Assembly: GCA_965369865.1 (NCBI GenBank)
Contig: CBDURU010000004.1
Span: 7,201 to 71,200 of the forward strand
Direction: 5' to 3'
DNA: 64,000 nt
Source: an uncultured bacterium
GTDB taxonomy: Bacteria; JAJVIF01; JAPKYR01
The notes beneath the pieces were generated by a model, which had not been told where the DNA came from, ran no database searches, and worked only from the letters and a program-made list of their open reading frames with translations. Both the position numbers and the translations under genes were made by a program. Shown one piece after another: positions 213 through 39,985 of this stretch. Within the stretch, counting starts at the first letter, position 1; every line of letters starts with the position of its first letter.

Positions 213-3203
213 TTGCAGGATTTCCTTTATATTTATATTATGCAGGATTTAATGACAACAATAAAATCCCGGAGTCATTGGGTACTCCAGACTGGTATCG
301 TCTCGATACTGGTCCTGCTCCTCTGCGGATGCTCCGGATCTGGGAAGCATGGTGATCCTATAACCCCTGCTGATCCAGGCTCGGATCAAAATATCGGACT
401 GTCGGATGGGATTCCAAATCCAGGCAACCGGTACACGCTGGGTGTCTGGGATTTTCATGTCGATCCGGCAACCCAGACAGTAACCGGGTCTCGAAGGCGT
501 AATGCGGACATGCATCTCAACATTGTCAGGCTCCTGGAGGAACAGTGCAGCGACTGCCTGAGGTTTGACAATTTCGATTTTTCAACGCCGGGTCAGTTAG
601 ATGTGGATATGACAATTAAACACCCTTTTGAAGGCAACCTGGCTCTGACAATATTCGATGTCCGGGGCATTTTTATAACTGATGATCATGAGGACCCATT
701 CATCAGATTTGCGTGGGGTGATGATTTACCTGTCCTTGTAAATCCCGATGGGTATACCTATCTTTTTAGTGAACAGAAATATCCATATAACCCGGATGAA
801 CCATCAATGCTGAATTATTATCCGGGCGTTTTTACCTTCGGGGAAGAGCGATCCGCAAAATTAAATGCTTTTTTAGCATATGGAAAAGATAGTCCGAGAA
901 GGATGTTCCTTCCGGGAACAGAGGAAACCCGAACTTTACAGATCGCGCTTCCTGGCATTCCATTTGATTTCGGATACGTAATAGATGTTTGCTGGGCTCT
1001 TCCGGATGCTGATCCTGTTGTTGATCCTGTGGATGATTTCCCCATTACCGCTAACTGCAATGAAGCATACAAACTTAATATCACTATTGGAGATGGTCTA
1101 ACAACAGCTCCTGGAAGTAAAGCGATAATCGAGGTAGAAATATTCGATCATCAGGGGCATGAAACCATAAGTTATTATTATAATTCTGATCATGATATAT
1201 TCATACCCCAGATAACTGGCCGGTTAATGCTTCCAGATGGCCCAGATATCTGGTACGCCTCACCAGGCATTGTTGATGAAAATCAATTTGAATTTTCTAA
1301 AGCAACCGGTGAAGACAGTTTTCAATTTACAGCTATAATTGAACAAGAGCTACAGTTATCGATTGAGGAAGGTCTTTACCCACTTGAAATTTATGTTTAT
1401 GATACGGTTGAAGATCCAAATCTTGGGTTCCACACAGCATCTAATGTAATTCCGGTATTTATTCCTGGGGGTGTCGACGCGCTACCGGTTGCCGAGGCAC
1501 TGGCGTATCCTGTCCCGCAGACAGTCGGGAAACCTGTTCAGTTTCGCAATAACGGTTCATACGATCCTGATGGCGGTGTAATTACGAAATTTGAGTGGGA
1601 CTGGGATATGGACGGGACGTTCGATGACGAGGGCAATCCGCTAAACCACATATTCGATACCCCTGGTCTCATCTACGTAAACCTTCGTGTAACCGACAAC
1701 GAGGGGTCGTCCCGAACGCTCTTTGAGCCTCTGGAAGTGATGATTAAGGAAGGCGAGGGCTGGGCGCGCACGTGGGGGGGTAGTTTTTCTGACTCTGCAT
1801 GGAATGTAGCTGTGGATAATGAAGGGAATATTTATGTGGTGGGTTATTATACAGCAACAACAGATTTTGATCCAAGTCCGTTTTTGGAAGCAATCAGGCA
1901 AAACTATGGTGAGGATAGCTCTGGATTTATCAGTAAATTTGGCAGAGATGGCCAATTCAAATGGGTACGAACAATGGGCGGATCTTACCAGGCATGGCCA
2001 CATTCACCCATTATAGGTGACAATGGCAACCTTTATTTAGTGGGTAAATTTTGGCCTACGTTGACTTTTGAGGGAGATCCAACACAGACTGAATATTTTT
2101 CCGGAAACGGAGGTGATGCTTTCCTGTGCTCTTACGGTAAGGCAGGTGAGTTCCAGTGGGCGATAACATGGGGAGGGGAAGGAAGTTTTTCAAATAGCGC
2201 AAATTGTCTTGATGGGGCTGGAAATATCTACATTGGAGGGACTTTTAGGGGAACCATCGACTTCGATCCTGGTCCTGGGATCGAGTTACATACAGCATCT
2301 AATGAACTTGATGCATACATTGAAAAACTAAGCCCCACGGGTGATTTTATCTGGGTAAGGACATGGGGATCAGAACCAACGGACCCACCTTCATCCTACT
2401 TAACAAGCCAGGTATATGAGATCGCAACTGATTCCAGTGATGCTGTGTATTGTACTGGTTACTTTAACGGGATTGTAGATTTTGATCCCGGCCCGGAAAC
2501 TGATTTCCATACAGCGACTGGCTTTCCCACGAATTTTAGAGAAGATGTCTTTCTGAGCAAGTTCACCAGCGATGGTGAATATCAATGGGTGAGAACGTGG
2601 GGAAACACCAAAGAGGACGAAGGATATGGGGTGGCTATAGATAGTAAAGATAATATTAGTGTTATTGGTTTTTTTCACAACACTGTGGACTTCGATCCCG
2701 GTCCGGGAGAATTTGAACTAACCTCAGCTTACTCTTATGGGACCTATAGCCCATTTATGAGCAGGTTTAATACTGAAGGTGATTTTATATGGGCTTTAAC
2801 CTGGGATGCCGGGGTGGACTGGCACTGGAGAGGATTATCAATCGCTCTTGATGCATGGGACAATATATTTGTTACAGGTATGTTTTGGCCAAGTGCTGAT
2901 TTCGACCCGGGACCCGGGATTGATGAGAGAACATCAAATGGTGGGAGGGATTATTACCTGAGTAAATTCAATGCTGACGGTGAGTTTTTATGGGTAGGGA
3001 CATGGGGAGGGCCAAGTTCGGAATACAATGGGCACGGGGTTGCTGTAGACTCACTTGGCTATGCAAGTGTTGTAGGTGGATTCCATAGTACTGCTGATTT
3101 CGACCCAGGTCCAGGTGAAGACTTACATTCGGTATACGAATATACCATTGGTGGAGCCGGTGATACATTCCTAACCAGGTTCCCCCCGGATGGCAATTGG
3201 TGA
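213..3203 (+). CDS. Secreted lipoprotein with about 9 beta-propeller (SBBP-type) repeats and a PKD domain
   Basis: 996 aa ORF. The N-terminus has a hydrophobic segment followed by lipobox LLLCGC-SGS. A roughly 45-55 aa motif containing DFDPGPG/DFDPSP and W(V/A)RTWGG recurs about 9 times, as in SBBP beta-propeller repeats. A PKD-like segment (YDPDGG...EWDWDMDGTFDDEGN...VTDNEGS) sits mid-protein. The true start is probably the internal Met at 240 or 252. Confidence 0.7.
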   Translation: MQDFLYIYIMQDLMTTIKSRSHWVLQTGIVSILVLLLCGCSGSGKHGDPITPADPGSDQNIGLSDGIPNPGNRYTLGVWDFHVDPATQTVTGSRRRNADMHLNIVRLLEEQCSDCLRFDNFDFSTPGQLDVDMTIKHPFEGNLALTIFDVRGIFITDDHEDPFIRFAWGDDLPVLVNPDGYTYLFSEQKYPYNPDEPSMLNYYPGVFTFGEERSAKLNAFLAYGKDSPRRMFLPGTEETRTLQIALPGIPFDFGYVIDVCWALPDADPVVDPVDDFPITANCNEAYKLNITIGDGLTTAPGSKAIIEVEIFDHQGHETISYYYNSDHDIFIPQITGRLMLPDGPDIWYASPGIVDENQFEFSKATGEDSFQFTAIIEQELQLSIEEGLYPLEIYVYDTVEDPNLGFHTASNVIPVFIPGGVDALPVAEALAYPVPQTVGKPVQFRNNGSYDPDGGVITKFEWDWDMDGTFDDEGNPLNHIFDTPGLIYVNLRVTDNEGSSRTLFEPLEVMIKEGEGWARTWGGSFSDSAWNVAVDNEGNIYVVGYYTATTDFDPSPFLEAIRQNYGEDSSGFISKFGRDGQFKWVRTMGGSYQAWPHSPIIGDNGNLYLVGKFWPTLTFEGDPTQTEYFSGNGGDAFLCSYGKAGEFQWAITWGGEGSFSNSANCLDGAGNIYIGGTFRGTIDFDPGPGIELHTASNELDAYIEKLSPTGDFIWVRTWGSEPTDPPSSYLTSQVYEIATDSSDAVYCTGYFNGIVDFDPGPETDFHTATGFPTNFREDVFLSKFTSDGEYQWVRTWGNTKEDEGYGVAIDSKDNISVIGFFHNTVDFDPGPGEFELTSAYSYGTYSPFMSRFNTEGDFIWALTWDAGVDWHWRGLSIALDAWDNIFVTGMFWPSADFDPGPGIDERTSNGGRDYYLSKFNADGEFLWVGTWGGPSSEYNGHGVAVDSLGYASVVGGFHSTADFDPGPGEDLHSVYEYTIGGAGDTFLTRFPPDGNW

Positions 3204-3282
3204 GGGAATGGCAGTAGTCCCCCCTGTACAGGCCAGGAACATCCTAAAATAAAAAAATACGTCGATTGTATGCGGGGTAGTT

Positions 3283-3440
3283 ATACCAATCTTAGATTCA
3301 GGGACGCCTTTCCATGCTTCCAGCGTTGAAGGTGTCCCGTGTAACTAAGAATTCATGGGGACACTTTCAACGCTGGAAGCATGGAAAAGCGTCCCCATGA
3401 ATTCTGGAAGCATGAAAAAGCGTCCCCATGAATTCAAAGC
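3283..3440. repeat. Dispersed intergenic repeat, expanded copy A, with a 37 bp inverted repeat (long hairpin) and a 32 bp tandem duplication
   Basis: The 33-mer TACCAATCTTAGATTCAGGGACGCCTTTCCATG and the 12-mer AATTCAAAGCGT flank about 115 bp of internal sequence here. The same two segments abut directly at 39413-39462. The insert contains GGACGCCTTTCCATGCTTCCAGCGTTGAAGGTGTCCC and its near-perfect reverse complement, plus two copies of CTGGAAGCATG(G/A)AAAAGCGTCCCCATGAATTC. Confidence 0.6.
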
Positions 3441-3443
3441 GTC

Positions 3444-4103
3444 TTATATATTCTGCTCAAATGCGGGGTTAAGAATGTAAAGCGCCTGCTCTACTGCCGC
3501 CTTAATATCCTCTGCTTCGCTAATCATGCTGACCGTCGCGATTCTCAGTGGTTTGATTACTCCCGCGAGGTCTTCGAGGTCTGAAAATTTGACACCCCCG
3601 AGGAAAAAAACAGGGACTTTAATCTTACCAAGGATATCCTTCGCGCCTTCGATCCCATGAGGTTCGTGCGGGGAATCCTTGTGGGAAAGCATGAACAGGG
3701 GGCTGTAGATAATGAAATCCGCTCCCATCCACGTTGCGGAAATTGCTTCCTCGACATTATGCGCTGAAAATCCGATAAGGAGGTCCATTCCCATGTGTTC
3801 CCTGACAACCTCTACCGGCAGATTGTTCACCCCGAGTTGAATCCCGTCCGCCCTGACAAGCGAAGCGATATCGAGCCGGTCGTTTACGATCAGTCCCGCT
3901 CCAACGTCATCACAAAGCTCCCTGACCTTAAGGCATTCGGTGTAAAAGTCTGCATCGTTCAGGTCCGGTTCGCGGTATTGAATCCACCTGCAGCCTCCAC
4001 GCAGGACGTCGGCAATGACCGAGAGATTATCACGCCCTTTGGAACGGTGCCGATCGGTGATAAACATAAGGGGATGCTCTCGGATAGATAGTGCTGGGAC
4101 CAA
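3444..4103 (-). CDS. thiE: Thiamine-phosphate synthase
   Basis: 219 aa. The N-terminus (LMFITD...) and the central and C-terminal regions (GADFIIYSP, GGVKFSDLEDLAGVIKPLRIATVS, LIVND...D) match the ThiE TIM-barrel family. Confidence 0.8.
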   Translation of the reverse strand: MVPALSIREHPLMFITDRHRSKGRDNLSVIADVLRGGCRWIQYREPDLNDADFYTECLKVRELCDDVGAGLIVNDRLDIASLVRADGIQLGVNNLPVEVVREHMGMDLLIGFSAHNVEEAISATWMGADFIIYSPLFMLSHKDSPHEPHGIEGAKDILGKIKVPVFFLGGVKFSDLEDLAGVIKPLRIATVSMISEAEDIKAAVEQALYILNPAFEQNI

Positions 4104-4202
4104 CGCTTCATCCTTTTTGGCGGAAATTTATCCCCGTTTACTTCCGCGTTTTAAATGAATCGATACTGGTAGCGGAAAAATTACTTAAAGAATGTTACCA
4201 GC

Positions 4203-4391
4203 CTATTTCTCCGTTATTTCAATTTCAAACTGCTTCTCTTCAAGATTCAGAAAAATCGAGAGTGCGTCCTTTGCGTTGGTGATCACTTCTTCCTTAGTGT
4301 CACCGTACGCGAAAAACCCGGGTGAATCAGGTGAGGTGGCCCACCAGTTATTTTCCAGGCTTTTTTCTATCATTACTTGTACTTTTTTCAT
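4203..4391 (-). CDS. HicB-like / UPF0150 family small protein, a possible orphan antitoxin
   Basis: 62 aa. The motif WWATSPDSPGFFAYGDTKEEVITNAKDALSIFLE resembles the UPF0150/HicB antitoxin fold. No HicA partner is visible. The start overlaps the ugd stop by 4 nt. Confidence 0.4.
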   Translation of the reverse strand: MKKVQVMIEKSLENNWWATSPDSPGFFAYGDTKEEVITNAKDALSIFLNLEEKQFEIEITEK

Positions 4392-16450: not shown

Positions 16451-16664
16451 CCACTATCCTTCATCCCCCCTTTCCCCTAAAATATCCCTCAATCAACCTC
16501 CTTCTCCCAAGGAGCCCGATACCACTGCCTAAACTCCTCCTCTTCACTTTAACCATCCTCTTCGCGATTACCCTCGCATCCTGCACCGATCGCGCCGGTG
16601 CAAAAAACGATCCGCCATCCAAGGTTGAATAAGCATACGCCGGATGCGCATGTTACATTTGAGG

Positions 16665-37199: not shown

Positions 37200-37330
37200 A
37201 GGCGGGTTTTTTAAAGCGGACAAATGAAACATGCAGAATGCATGTTTGACTGGGGAGTCATGCGCAGGATGCGCATGTTACATTTTTTAAAGCGGACAAG
37301 TGAACACATGCAGAATGCGCATGTTACATA
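37200..37330. promoter_or_regulatory. Repeated palindromic elements upstream of exbB: candidate operator and promoter region
   Basis: Perfect 21 bp palindrome AAACATGCA-GAA-TGCATGTTT at 37228-37248. About 40 bp direct repeat TTTTTTAAAGCGGACAA(A/G)TGAA(A/C)ACATGCAGAATGC(GC)ATGTT, two copies. Hairpin CATGCGCA-GGA-TGCGCATG at 37259-37277. On the minus strand, TTGCGC-N16-TATACT is a promoter-like element just upstream of exbB. Confidence 0.45.
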
Positions 37331-38632
37331 TTAAAACCTGGGTTTTTTTGTAATTAAAATTACTATTGCGGCGATAATACTTGCCGCACCCGCGATCATG
37401 AACGGGGTCATCCAGGCACCGTAACCCGCGCCGCCCGATGCCAGGTCTCTGAAATATCCGGCGATCTGCGGACCTACAAGTCCACCCACACCGTACGCGG
37501 TAAACATCCAGCCATAGTTGACACCTACACTCTTATTTCCAAAATAATCCGCGGTCGCTGCAGGATAAAGTGCGAAATTACCCCCAAAGTTGAATCCTAT
37601 AATAGCAGCCATAACGAAAAGTCCGATTGCGGTGTTGCCAACATAGAAAAACGCAAGCATCGCGATCCCCTGTATCAGGCACATCAGGAAAATTGCCATT
37701 TTCCGTCCGATTTTATCCGAGATCATTCCCCAGGCGATTCGTCCAATTCCGTTGGCAAGCGAGTAAAAAACTGCCATAGCTGTACCTGCTGTCGCGGCAG
37801 CCTGTTCGGCAGTCATCCCTGTGGTCTGCAGCGAGTCGATCCCAAATAACTTGATAACACCGATCACCATCAGGCCTGCCATGGCTCCGGCGATAAAGCA
37901 GAACCAGATCATGTAGAACTGGGGGGTTTTAAGCATCTGGAACTGGTTAAATTCCACCGAACCGGTCGCCGACCCACCCGGTTCACCCGATGGTTCCGCT
38001 GGTTCCCAACCCTCAGGCTTGTATCCATCGGGTGGGTTCACCATCCAGATTGACCCAATGAGAACGGCAACCATGTAAATAATCCCAAAAATTAACCATG
38101 TTTGCGAAAGACCCAGGTTATCAATCAAATGACCCCATGATCCAGCCAGCTTGACCCATATAAGCGCACCGAAACCAAATCCTGCGACCGCGAGTCCCGT
38201 TATCATGCCTTTCTTATCCGGGAACCATTTCACGCCTACTGCGATAGGGCATACATAGGCAAGGCCGATTCCCGCACCGCCAACCAGACCCAGAAGCACT
38301 ACCTGCATGGCAAGTGATTTCCCAATGAGGCCGGCAAGGATGTATCCAATTCCAAGTACAATTCCCCCGGTTATTGAAACAATTTTCGGGCCTGCTTTTT
38401 TCTGCCAGTTCCCGGCTAAAACCATCACCACCGCGAAAGTCGCAAGGCCTATCGAAAAAGGCAGTTGGGATTGGGCTTTGGTAAAACCGTAGAGTCCTCC
38501 CTCTGCAAGAGGTTTTGTCAGCTCTGCAGTGTATGCCGACCATGCATAGATCGCTCCAAGGCACAATTGTATCAGGATCGCTCCGAGTACAACCAACCAT
38601 CTGTTCATTCCGGGTCCGGATTTCATCATCAA
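37331..38632 (-). CDS. MFS transporter, oxalate/formate antiporter (OxlT-like) family
   Basis: 433 aa with 12 predicted TM segments and the OFA-family N-terminus (RWLVVLGAILIQLCLGAIYAWS). Confidence 0.7.
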   Translation of the reverse strand: MMMKSGPGMNRWLVVLGAILIQLCLGAIYAWSAYTAELTKPLAEGGLYGFTKAQSQLPFSIGLATFAVVMVLAGNWQKKAGPKIVSITGGIVLGIGYILAGLIGKSLAMQVVLLGLVGGAGIGLAYVCPIAVGVKWFPDKKGMITGLAVAGFGFGALIWVKLAGSWGHLIDNLGLSQTWLIFGIIYMVAVLIGSIWMVNPPDGYKPEGWEPAEPSGEPGGSATGSVEFNQFQMLKTPQFYMIWFCFIAGAMAGLMVIGVIKLFGIDSLQTTGMTAEQAAATAGTAMAVFYSLANGIGRIAWGMISDKIGRKMAIFLMCLIQGIAMLAFFYVGNTAIGLFVMAAIIGFNFGGNFALYPAATADYFGNKSVGVNYGWMFTAYGVGGLVGPQIAGYFRDLASGGAGYGAWMTPFMIAGAASIIAAIVILITKKPRF

Positions 38633-38807: not shown

Positions 38808-39104
38808 TCAGGTATCATCTAAAATTTCCGCGACAGATTTTACCTTGCCTTTAAGCATGCCTTCCGCCCCTGCCTTGTCATCAATCCAGATTTTAATGCT
38901 CACCCTCCCGGAATCCTTCCGCATCTCCAGACGGCACCGGTTAATTACATCCATAACCTCATCCCAGTCGCCTTCAATTAATGTGGACATCGCTGTTAAC
39001 TCAAAGGGCAGTCCCGATTTCTTAATAATTTTCAGGGATTTCGCCACAATATGAGAAAAGTGGGGTCCTTTGTCGAGTGGGATCATTGCGAAAGAAACGA
39101 GCAT
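38808..39104 (-). CDS. MTH1187/YkoF-family (DUF77) small protein, a putative thiamine/HMP-binding fold
   Basis: About 98 aa from the internal Met; the listed ORF extends to 39170. It shows the MxVSFxxIPLDKG...H....V...L pattern of the UPF0045/MTH1187 family. Confidence 0.55.
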   Translation of the reverse strand: MLVSFAMIPLDKGPHFSHIVAKSLKIIKKSGLPFELTAMSTLIEGDWDEVMDVINRCRLEMRKDSGRVSIKIWIDDKAGAEGMLKGKVKSVAEILDDT

Positions 39105-39361: not shown

Positions 39362-39400
39362 AAGCCCCCGGTTCCCACAACCGGGGGTGATTTTTTTCTT
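39362..39400 (+). terminator. Rho-independent terminator on the plus strand, with a T-run only on the plus side
   Basis: AAAGCCCCCGGTT-CCCAC-AACCGGGGGTGA is followed by TTTTTTT. Upstream at 39181-39285 there is a 16 bp near-perfect hairpin (CCGGGACACCTCAAAT...ATTTGATGGTGTCCCGG) enclosed by the closing stem AGGGCT/AGCCCT. Confidence 0.5.
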
Positions 39401-39412
39401 CCCATAATGAGT

Positions 39413-39462
39413 AATACCAATCTTAGATTCAGGGACGCCTTTCCATGAATTCAAAGCGTGTA
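39413..39462. repeat. Dispersed intergenic repeat, compact copy B
   Basis: TACCAATCTTAGATTCAGGGACGCCTTTCCATGAATTCAAAGCGT matches the two ends of the element at 3283-3440 but lacks the internal inverted-repeat insert. Confidence 0.6.
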
Positions 39463-39829
39463 AGGCCAATGCCGTTAAATAAAAATTGATAGGACATATT
39501 TAGTATTGATGTACGTCGTACACTTACATTTGGGAATGATTCAGGATTTTTTTGAAGATCGGGGACACCTGCTTTTCGACGGGCGAAAAGAGATGTCCCC
39601 AGTATTAGCAGACGAACTCAGGCTTGCGGGATGGAGATGTCTCACTCGGCTTGCCGACGCCACGCGATTAGGCCGCCGCCATGCGTTTATAATTCTACGG
39701 TCGTTAAAATTACCCTTGTATCACCGTCACCATTCGGGTATGTTTTAGAATTATTGTTTGGATAGTTTTGTAAGTCATTGGCCTCCCCCCCTTAATCCCC
39801 CCCGCAAGCGGTGGGGAGGTATGGTGTTT

Positions 39830-39985
39830 GTCCTTTAATTGTAACGCAGGCAGCTTGCCTGCAGTACCGCGGACAGCTTGTCCTTTAATTGTAACGCAGG
39901 CAGCTTGCCTCCAGTACCGCGGACAGCTTGTCCTTAAATTGTAACGCAGGCAGCTTGCCTGCAGTACCGCGGACAGCTTGTCCGC
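39830..39985. repeat. Three tandem 50 bp direct repeats, each carrying two short hairpins, abutting the alaS start
   Basis: Unit GTCCTTTAATTGTAACGCAGGCAGCTTGCCTGCAGTACCGCGGACAGCTT repeats three times with 2 mismatches in total. Each unit carries hairpins GCAGGCA-GCT-TGCCTGC and GGACA-GCT-TGTCC. A GC-rich inverted repeat (CCTCCCC...GGGGAGG) precedes the array at 39783-39818. Confidence 0.85.

Follow-up and report, generated by a model that had tools for sequence, protein, structure and literature searches.

Small non-coding repeats with TNA target duplications and in-place length variation in an uncultured Planctomycetota lineage

Pneumococcal BOX elements carry a boxB module in variable tandem number between conserved ends, enterobacterial ERIC/IRU repeats come in shorter and longer variants that arise via internal deletion or insertion, and both form stable hairpins; elements derived from IS200/IS605 use a fixed tetra- or pentanucleotide target without duplicating it and carry subterminal hairpins at both ends. 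The Correia (NEMIS) elements of Neisseria have terminal inverted repeats (TIR) and a target duplication, fall into two size classes of ~107 and 155 bp, distinguished by an internal segment, and give rise to long hairpin transcripts that are cleaved by RNase III (PMC2229807). REPs of the CGTC/GTAG type consist of an unpaired tag, 5–13-bp stems, short loops and a 3-nt tail, with no target duplication, and CGTC REPs have not been reported in Planctomycetes (PMC3733652). Among insertion sequences, the IS1031 group (IS5 family) prefers 5'-TNA-3' and generates exclusively a 3-bp direct repeat (PMC12016507). Here we set beside these systems a repeat (herein referred to as E1) that constitutes a previously undescribed family in an uncultured marine-sediment Planctomycetota lineage; the kind of selfish DNA is already well known, and E1 is very probably a family of non-coding MITEs that inserts at TNA with duplication of the triplet and changes in length in place.

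We analysed a stretch of 64,000 nt (the window), which is the reverse complement of positions 3376–67375 of ZORZ22-1 scaffold_49 (ENA ERZ23499000), a metagenome scaffold of 95 kb, and define E1 as the element common to positions 3284–3443 (copy A) and 39415–39460 (copy B). The initial annotation had pointed to a 33-mer (TACCAATCTTAGATTCAGGGACGCCTTTCCATG) found twice, both times in intergenic DNA, and exactly two such occurrences are present (3284–3316 and 39415–39447), against matches in 0 of 100 dinucleotide-preserving shuffles of the window (chance expectation 0); the stretch that the copies have in common is slightly longer than first noted (38 nt at 97% identity, from 3279 and 39410). A 12-mer, AATTCAAAGCGT, lies at 3431–3442 in copy A and at 39448–39459 in copy B. 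The two parts abut in the compact copy, as had been described (39447/39448), and are separated in copy A by exactly 114 nt, close to the ~115 bp originally given. The copies can be aligned only over these ~50 common bases and their flanks are unrelated; because homology stops at the element, they are discrete and not part of a larger duplicated segment. The boundaries of E1 enclose 160 nt in copy A and 46 nt in copy B, with the 3-nt duplications outside. The features, including those of an adjoining second repeat (E2), are the following:

3281–3283, + strand: left target-site duplication of copy A (TTA), identical to 3444–3446
3284–3443, + strand: long, hairpin-bearing E1 copy A (160 nt), comprising left end, arms, loop, two 31-nt units and right end
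3284–3304, + strand: E1 left end, TACCAATCTTAGATTCAGGGA, which the right end repeats imperfectly in inverted orientation
3301–3338, + strand: left arm of the 38-nt inverted repeat, 95% complementary
3339–3357, + strand: hairpin loop, GTGTAACTAAGAATTCATG; the loop TAA is the E2 insertion site in L006
3358–3395, + strand: right arm of the 38-nt inverted repeat
3373–3434, + strand: two tandem 31-nt units, CTGGAAGCATGGAAAAGCGTCCCCATGAATT; 0, 1 or 2 units among E1 family members
3428–3443, + strand: E1 right end, ATGAATTCAAAGCGTC, conserved in copy A, copy B, L012, L005, L008 and L028
3444–3446, − strand: right target-site duplication of copy A (TTA on the + strand), which is the TAA stop codon of thiE
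39412–39414, + strand: left target-site duplication of copy B (TAA)
39415–39460, + strand: compact E1 copy B (46 nt), ends joined at CCATG/AATTC, 0 units
39461–39463, + strand: right target-site duplication of copy B (TAA), also flank of the adjoining E2
39464–39666, + strand: partial copy of E2 (end GGCCAATGCC...), with a hairpin (GGGGACAC...GTGTCCCC) at 39561–39600 and the core at 39622–39666

Copy A stands between two convergent genes, one for a 996-aa PKD/SBBP protein (+) and thiE (−), in agreement with the earlier reading of this spacer as lipoprotein/thiE; thiE was identified via Pfam TMP-TENI, and its stop-to-stop ORF (3444–4127, −) terminates at the right duplication of copy A. Copy B lies between an MTH1187/Thiamine_BP gene (−), which is the 98-aa gene at 38808–39104 and not a 120-aa ORF, and alaS (+, called start 40002). 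E1 has no coding capacity, with no ORF of its own; no Rfam family reached its gathering score in the window, and permissive Rfam scans of both strands returned only generic hairpin (miRNA-precursor) models far below threshold. Two further observations concern the surroundings of copy A. Upstream of thiE, and overlapping the UDP-glucose dehydrogenase gene at its end, is a gene for a 62-aa HicB-like antitoxin (4203–4391; L001 11359–11547); it is conserved in every relative, and no HicA partner was noted. The five copies of a 30-nt motif at 2145–3008, spaced by 195–234 nt, lie inside the PKD/SBBP gene and reflect repeated protein domains, not a non-coding repeat.

The insert of copy A had been described as a near-perfect 37-bp inverted repeat followed by a 32-bp tandem duplication. 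Both structures are present, with slightly different dimensions: the inverted repeat is 38 nt long and 95% complementary (3301–3338 and 3358–3395, with a 19-nt loop), and the tandem unit measures 31 nt (3373–3403 and 3404–3434, 97%). The long hairpin predicted from them is supported by folding as RNA (−93.1 kcal/mol, z = −10.8 on the + strand; −90.8 kcal/mol, z = −12.1 on the − strand), with no shuffle as stable on either strand. Neither strand of the compact 46-nt form folds significantly (z = −0.8 and −0.5), and in all unit-bearing forms the predicted fold pairs the subterminal repeats. The earlier suggestion that such elements double as terminators gains no support from the sequence of copy A, whose hairpin lacks, on either strand, the directly following U-tract of an intrinsic (rho-independent) terminator; no T-run adjoins the hairpin, and no terminator-like site was found within 3000–3700 on either strand. 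Elsewhere in the window, a terminator-like hairpin with a T-run occurs on the + strand at 39364–39395, upstream of the minus-strand Thiamine_BP gene, where no + gene ends.

Hairpins and tandem repeats in a metagenome scaffold may be products of assembly, and in an independent Logan assembly of the window's own sample two short-read contigs (L002 and L032) do break inside the elements, as is usual at repeats. The hairpin form nevertheless recurs in independent assemblies and other samples, at this and at other loci (L003, L006, L017, L028), and is therefore not an assembly artefact; the two-unit state, moreover, is common to the window and L028. We give an artefactual origin next to no credence.

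To look for E1 elsewhere, we searched 185,579 species-representative genomes for a degenerate core, GGGACGCYTTTYCATGMWTYC, that covers all four window variants, and recovered 19 loci. Nine core matches on six contigs belong to a single MAG, Planctomycetota bacterium CSMAG_1386 (DAOVJF01), and 13 others occur once each in unrelated taxa, roughly as many as expected by chance from the information content of the pattern. CSMAG_1386 is ~95% identical to the window and carries six further E1 copies at unrelated loci, so that the notion of a dispersed element holds beyond the two original sites; BLAST of these loci against the window matches only the repeats, and the flanks are unrelated. The copies are the following:

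L012: 46-nt compact form, identical to copy B
L003 (contig edge): hairpin form, with 119 nt that match copy A at 100% identity
L017: hairpin form in its left half only, followed by a different hairpin
L005: intermediate 78-nt form, which is the compact form plus one 31-nt unit
L008: 56-nt form
L006: hairpin form with a 210-nt E2 inside the loop, 361 nt in total

E1 thus occupies eight distinct insertion sites, two in the window and six in CSMAG_1386, and ranges in size from 46 to 160 nt (L006 reaches 361 nt through its nested E2). Its neighbors in CSMAG_1386 include trkA-like, histidine kinase, murJ, lepA, DeoC aldolase and sulfatase genes, and there is no transposase among the genes beside these copies. 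A scan of JGI metagenome contigs with the left-end 19-mer gave two chance matches, with similarity ending at 19–21 nt; two scans of viral contigs contained no E1, and plasmids and phages had no blastn match to it.

With all copies oriented alike, E1 reads TACCAATCTTAGATTCAGGGA...ATGAATTCAAAGCGT(C/G), and a fuzzy search finds the left end in every copy with 0–1 mismatch. Target-site duplications, which had been proposed as something to search for, are present as 3-nt repeats at every complete copy: TTA/TTA in copy A (3281–3283 and 3444–3446), TAA/TAA in copy B (39412–39414 and 39461–39463), TTA/TTA in L012, TGA/TGA in L008, TTA/TTA in L005 and TCA/TCA in L006. Matching T-N-A flanks are therefore seen in six of six complete copies, and agreement of the middle base in all six has p = 2.5e-4 when T and A are taken as fixed. 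The left end of the long form can be aligned with the reverse-complemented right end over ~34 nt with 3 mismatches and 3 gap positions; this imperfect inverted repeat begins 4–7 nt inside the tips, which differ, the outermost 4–7 nt being non-complementary (TACCAAT vs GACG), a feature unusual for IS5-type ends. The compact form retains ~18 nt of each end. The right end of L006 differs, being an inverted copy of the E1 left end, and the right terminus of E1 is thus not fully settled.

Orthologs of one filled locus allow inserted and uninserted states to be compared directly. In L012, compact E1 and E2 together occupy the spacer that separates a trkA-like gene from a convergent 285-aa ORF, and we predicted its empty site beforehand by taking out both elements along with two of the three TTA triplets, which yields ...GAATGAC TAA TGAAC... 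and, with it, two genes overlapping at their stop codons. The orthologous trkA loci, taken from the 90% protein cluster, have the following structures:

L036 (Logan ERR10503156): ...GAATGAC TAA TGCAC..., an empty site in which the genes overlap by 4 nt
L012 (MAG CSMAG_1386): GAC TAA, E1 (46 nt), TAA, E2 (123 nt), TAA TGA
L033 and L035 (JGI 3300040951/2): TAA, E1 (78 nt, one unit), TAA, E2 ...
L034 (the window's sample, scaffold_713; 2501–3511): ...GAATTCCTGAAT-CTAAGATTGGTA TAA, E2, TAA

Comparison of the empty (L036) and filled (L012) alleles confirms the predicted clean site; E1 and E2 are therefore insertions accompanied by a 3-nt duplication, and at trkA both use the same TAA. In L034, nearly all of E1 has been deleted between 7-nt CCTGAAT repeats, one of which lies in trkA and the other in E1, and trkA is fused to the last 12 nt of E1, with the duplicated TAA as its stop codon; the encoded TrkA ends in ...EFLNLRLV (stop) and has 336 aa instead of 333, its C-terminal D being replaced by LRLV. 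The 46-nt form, the 78-nt form and the 12-nt relic are thus allelic states of a single insertion, which shows that E1 changes from one size to another in place, and the idea of an element caught in two states, put forward from the two window copies, is borne out by these alleles at a fixed trkA insertion.

E2 makes up a second repeat family that is itself modular: its ends are GACCAATCC...GGATTGGTC, and it has a 45-nt core and, optionally, a 40-nt hairpin module; beyond the window, copies occur in L012 (3239–3361) and in L006 (5374–5583, 24–177 and 7780–7975). It abuts E1 in the window and at trkA, where it has TAA/TAA flanks and a matching empty site, and is nested in the E1 loop in L006. With a common ...ACCAAT... 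terminus and TNA duplication, E2 is a sister family of E1. An 80-aa ORF called across the window copy (39506–39748) is probably spurious.

Relatives of the window also inform on the loci of copies A and B. The thiE 90% cluster contains four orthologous loci (L026, L027, L028 and L029) with DNA ~95% identical to the window, three of which have no element after thiE (L026, L027 from CSMAG_1386, and L029); the fourth (L028; ENA ERZ23498525, ZHAN22-2) has the element at the same place, with two units, on a contig that ends inside it. The empty L027 and the filled L028 share 99.6% identity over 2447 nt, with no difference in the final kilobase before and including GAGTAGA, after which three of the next four bases differ and TAA and the element follow in L028. 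Copy A is thus a strain-level presence/absence polymorphism, and it sits at a synteny breakpoint: past the element, homology is lost between the window and the empty alleles, which instead have after thiE a co-directional, large lipoprotein-like gene whose protein is 26% identical to the window's convergent PKD/SBBP protein, and the region is a variable surface-protein region bounded by the MITE. Synteny with the ~95%-identical genomes stops in the region of the thiE stop codon (window 3443–3452, compared with L026, L027 and L029). Locus A offers no clean empty site, as the far flank is non-syntenic in the empty alleles and three of the four bases beside the TAA differ; a rearrangement through the E1 copy, or exchange of a variable segment that starts just outside the element, would both fit this breakpoint.

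At locus B, a single relative was compared (L030, JGI), in which E1 is absent and the spacer strongly remodelled, with the E2 interior kept together with a 9–13-nt stretch resembling the E1 left end; there is no clean empty site in L030. This spacer holds several features of its own. The block with the terminator-like hairpin at 39364–39395 has no alignment to L030. Three tandem 50-nt units (98% identical; 39828–39983) lie just upstream of the alaS start, each with two short palindromes (GCAGGCAGCTTGCCTGC and GGACAGCTTGTCC), and L030 has a single unit; they may represent a repeat of variable copy number within the leader or promoter, or else a site resembling an operator. A C-run/G-run hairpin, CCTCCCCCCCTTAATCCCCCCCGCAAGCGGTGGGGAGG, occurs in the same spacer upstream of alaS (window 39782–39820) and again beside E1 in L008 (3757–3793), is absent from the orthologous L030 spacer, and probably represents a further small repeat family. 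The alaS of L030 is divided into two gene calls (553 and 204 aa; 1998–4270) against one of 876 aa, and this split is a frameshift, a pseudogene or an assembly error. Elsewhere in the window, a 27-nt CATGCGCAGGATGCGCATGTTACATTT-like motif occurs three times (16634–16660, 37259–37285 and 37305–37331), the latter two in tandem, 46 nt apart, just upstream of an MFS transporter gene; it might serve as a binding site for a regulator or belong to another repeat.

In copy A (thiE), L012 (trkA) and L005 (histidine kinase), the triplet that has been duplicated coincides with the stop codon of the neighboring gene, and in L006 the murJ stop codon directly abuts it. Every TNA reads TAA or TGA on one strand or the other; as TAA and TGA (seen from the opposite strand, TTA and TCA) conform to TNA, a stop codon is a usable target, and duplication of a TNA located there regenerates the stop codon. 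Three of the five informative loci hit a stop codon exactly (p ~0.04 for at least three, conditioned on TNA sites in short spacers). Several copies lie exactly on stop codons because tightly packed gene pairs can offer no other harmless site, and at trkA the stop codon is the sole non-coding position. Short spacers and purifying selection explain the excess equally well, and we consider it doubtful that E1 and E2 actively prefer, beyond such selection, stop codons or DNA beside an existing element, the latter suggested by the single TNA that they have in common at both loci where they are adjacent (window and trkA). If such targeting were real, the family would systematically rewrite the 3' ends of genes, adding stop codons, C-terminal tails (as in TrkA, ...NLRLV followed by the stop codon) and 3' hairpins genome-wide.

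Several other explanations of E1 deserve consideration. A REP/BIME-type palindrome tagged by GTAG or CGTC and spread by a RAYT/IS200-like tyrosine transposase, as opposed to a DDE-type MITE, would be in keeping with the palindromic, modular and intergenic character of E1, its frequent position a few nt from stop codons and the CGTC within its right end (...GCGTC), and REP families have been reported in the PVC group (PMC3733652). However, the CGTC of E1 lies within the stem, the stems are 8 or 38 bp long and there is no conserved GTAG, and a 3-nt duplication at every complete copy, together with the verified empty site, renders a REP origin very improbable. Of the original label, "MITE- or REP-like," the first half fits the dispersal, target-site duplications and empty site and the second half does not. 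Alternatively, the two window copies, which lie in direct orientation 36,131 bp apart, might be attL/attR-type repeats bounding an integrated island or prophage of 36 kb, but each has its own, different duplication (TTA vs TAA) and six more copies occupy unrelated loci. The interval itself holds housekeeping genes (glycogen metabolism, UDP-glucose dehydrogenase, thiE, ExbBD/TonB), and the neighboring genes inside it remain syntenic in relatives without copy A (L026, L027, L029) or copy B (L030); with no tRNA gene in the window and no integrase among the annotated genes of the two stretches examined, the probability of an integrated island is practically nil.

The proximity of both window copies to thiamine genes, with copy A abutting the thiE stop codon and copy B ~310 nt upstream of the MTH1187/Thiamine_BP gene, raises the question of a cis-regulatory RNA or DNA site. 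This neighborhood is coincidental, because the neighbors of the other copies (trkA, histidine kinase, murJ/lepA, DeoC aldolase, sulfatase) are unrelated to thiamine; the orthologous thiE and Thiamine_BP loci of relatives lack the element, there is no match to the TPP riboswitch or any other Rfam family, and a regulatory role of this kind is extremely unlikely. A host-level effect of copy A is compatible with its being a MITE: as the sole strong structure between the convergent genes, starting 48 nt past the thiE stop codon, its hairpin, if transcribed at the 3' end of thiE, could stabilise that end, be a target of RNase III or form a bidirectional roadblock, much as co-transcribed Correia elements are RNase III substrates (PMC2229807). 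Such an effect is possible but rather unlikely, given that the hairpin is followed by no U-tract on either strand, very close strains do without the element, the compact copy lacks a significant fold and the copies are near-identical, so that no covariation among them supports selection on the structure.

Dispersal, duplications, an empty site, allelic size states and strain polymorphism are direct observations, and the MITE reading that we favor connects them through a mechanism already known in outline. We hypothesize that a DDE transposase acting in trans moves E1 by a cut-and-paste route; this enzyme would make a 3-nt staggered cut at 5'-TNA-3', with repair duplicating the triplet. The TTA, TAA, TGA and TCA duplications agree with the TNA/3-bp feature of the IS1031 group, and from this combination of target and duplication we infer that the enzyme is most likely of that type (IS5 family). 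A fuzzy search found no transposase-sized ORF flanked by paired ends in any fetched locus, and neither a transposase gene nor an autonomous IS with E1/E2-like ends came to light there.

Changes in length would follow insertion. Direct repeats of GAATTCATGG may allow gain or loss of the 31-nt unit, a deletion between CCATG repeats may remove the long palindrome and leave the 46-nt form, and deletion between chance 7-nt repeats, such as CCTGAAT at trkA, can fuse the element to a gene end; the short direct repeats at these changes are a likely footprint of replication slippage or of recombination across the hairpin. Copy A would then represent the long form with two units and copy B the fully collapsed form. 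The 46-nt form is found at two unrelated sites with different duplications (copy B and L012), a distribution that either transposition of this form or recurrent collapse would explain.

These findings add a well-documented MITE family to a phylum with poorly described mobile repeats, and provide a natural example of one insertion decaying or expanding in place, with states of 160, 78 and 46 nt and a 12-nt gene-fused relic. They also have practical consequences for this lineage, as E1 and E2 break its short-read assemblies, mark synteny breakpoints between ~95%-identical genomes and can produce spurious ORF calls and altered gene ends. No new mechanism emerges from them, the implied transposition chemistry being that of known IS5-type elements.

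Among described systems, the IS1031 group resembles E1 and E2 in the TNA target and 3-bp repeat found at all of their complete copies, but the E1 tips (TACCAAT... and ...GCGTC) are unlike one published IS1031-group end, GAACCTGTCTAGTATCT. An origin from an IS200/IS605-derived element was rejected, as E1 has a duplication, a variable middle base that matches on both sides and a left end without a hairpin. REP/BIME repeats are likewise intergenic palindromes in mosaic arrangements, frequently near stop codons (PMC3733652), but they are tagged, short-stemmed and RAYT-linked and make no duplication, whereas E1 duplicates TNA and has no tag. BOX and ERIC/IRU elements are similarly modular or size-variable intergenic repeats that differ from E1 in sequence, host and duplication. 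The closest analogue of E1 is the Correia/NEMIS family, from which it differs in duplicating TNA (3 nt) rather than TA, in lacking sequence similarity, in its smaller size (46–160 nt), its variable tandem 31-nt unit and non-complementary tips, and in its Planctomycetota host; like E1, Correia elements are small, non-coding intergenic MITEs with distinct size classes and with filled and empty sites between strains (PMC2229807).
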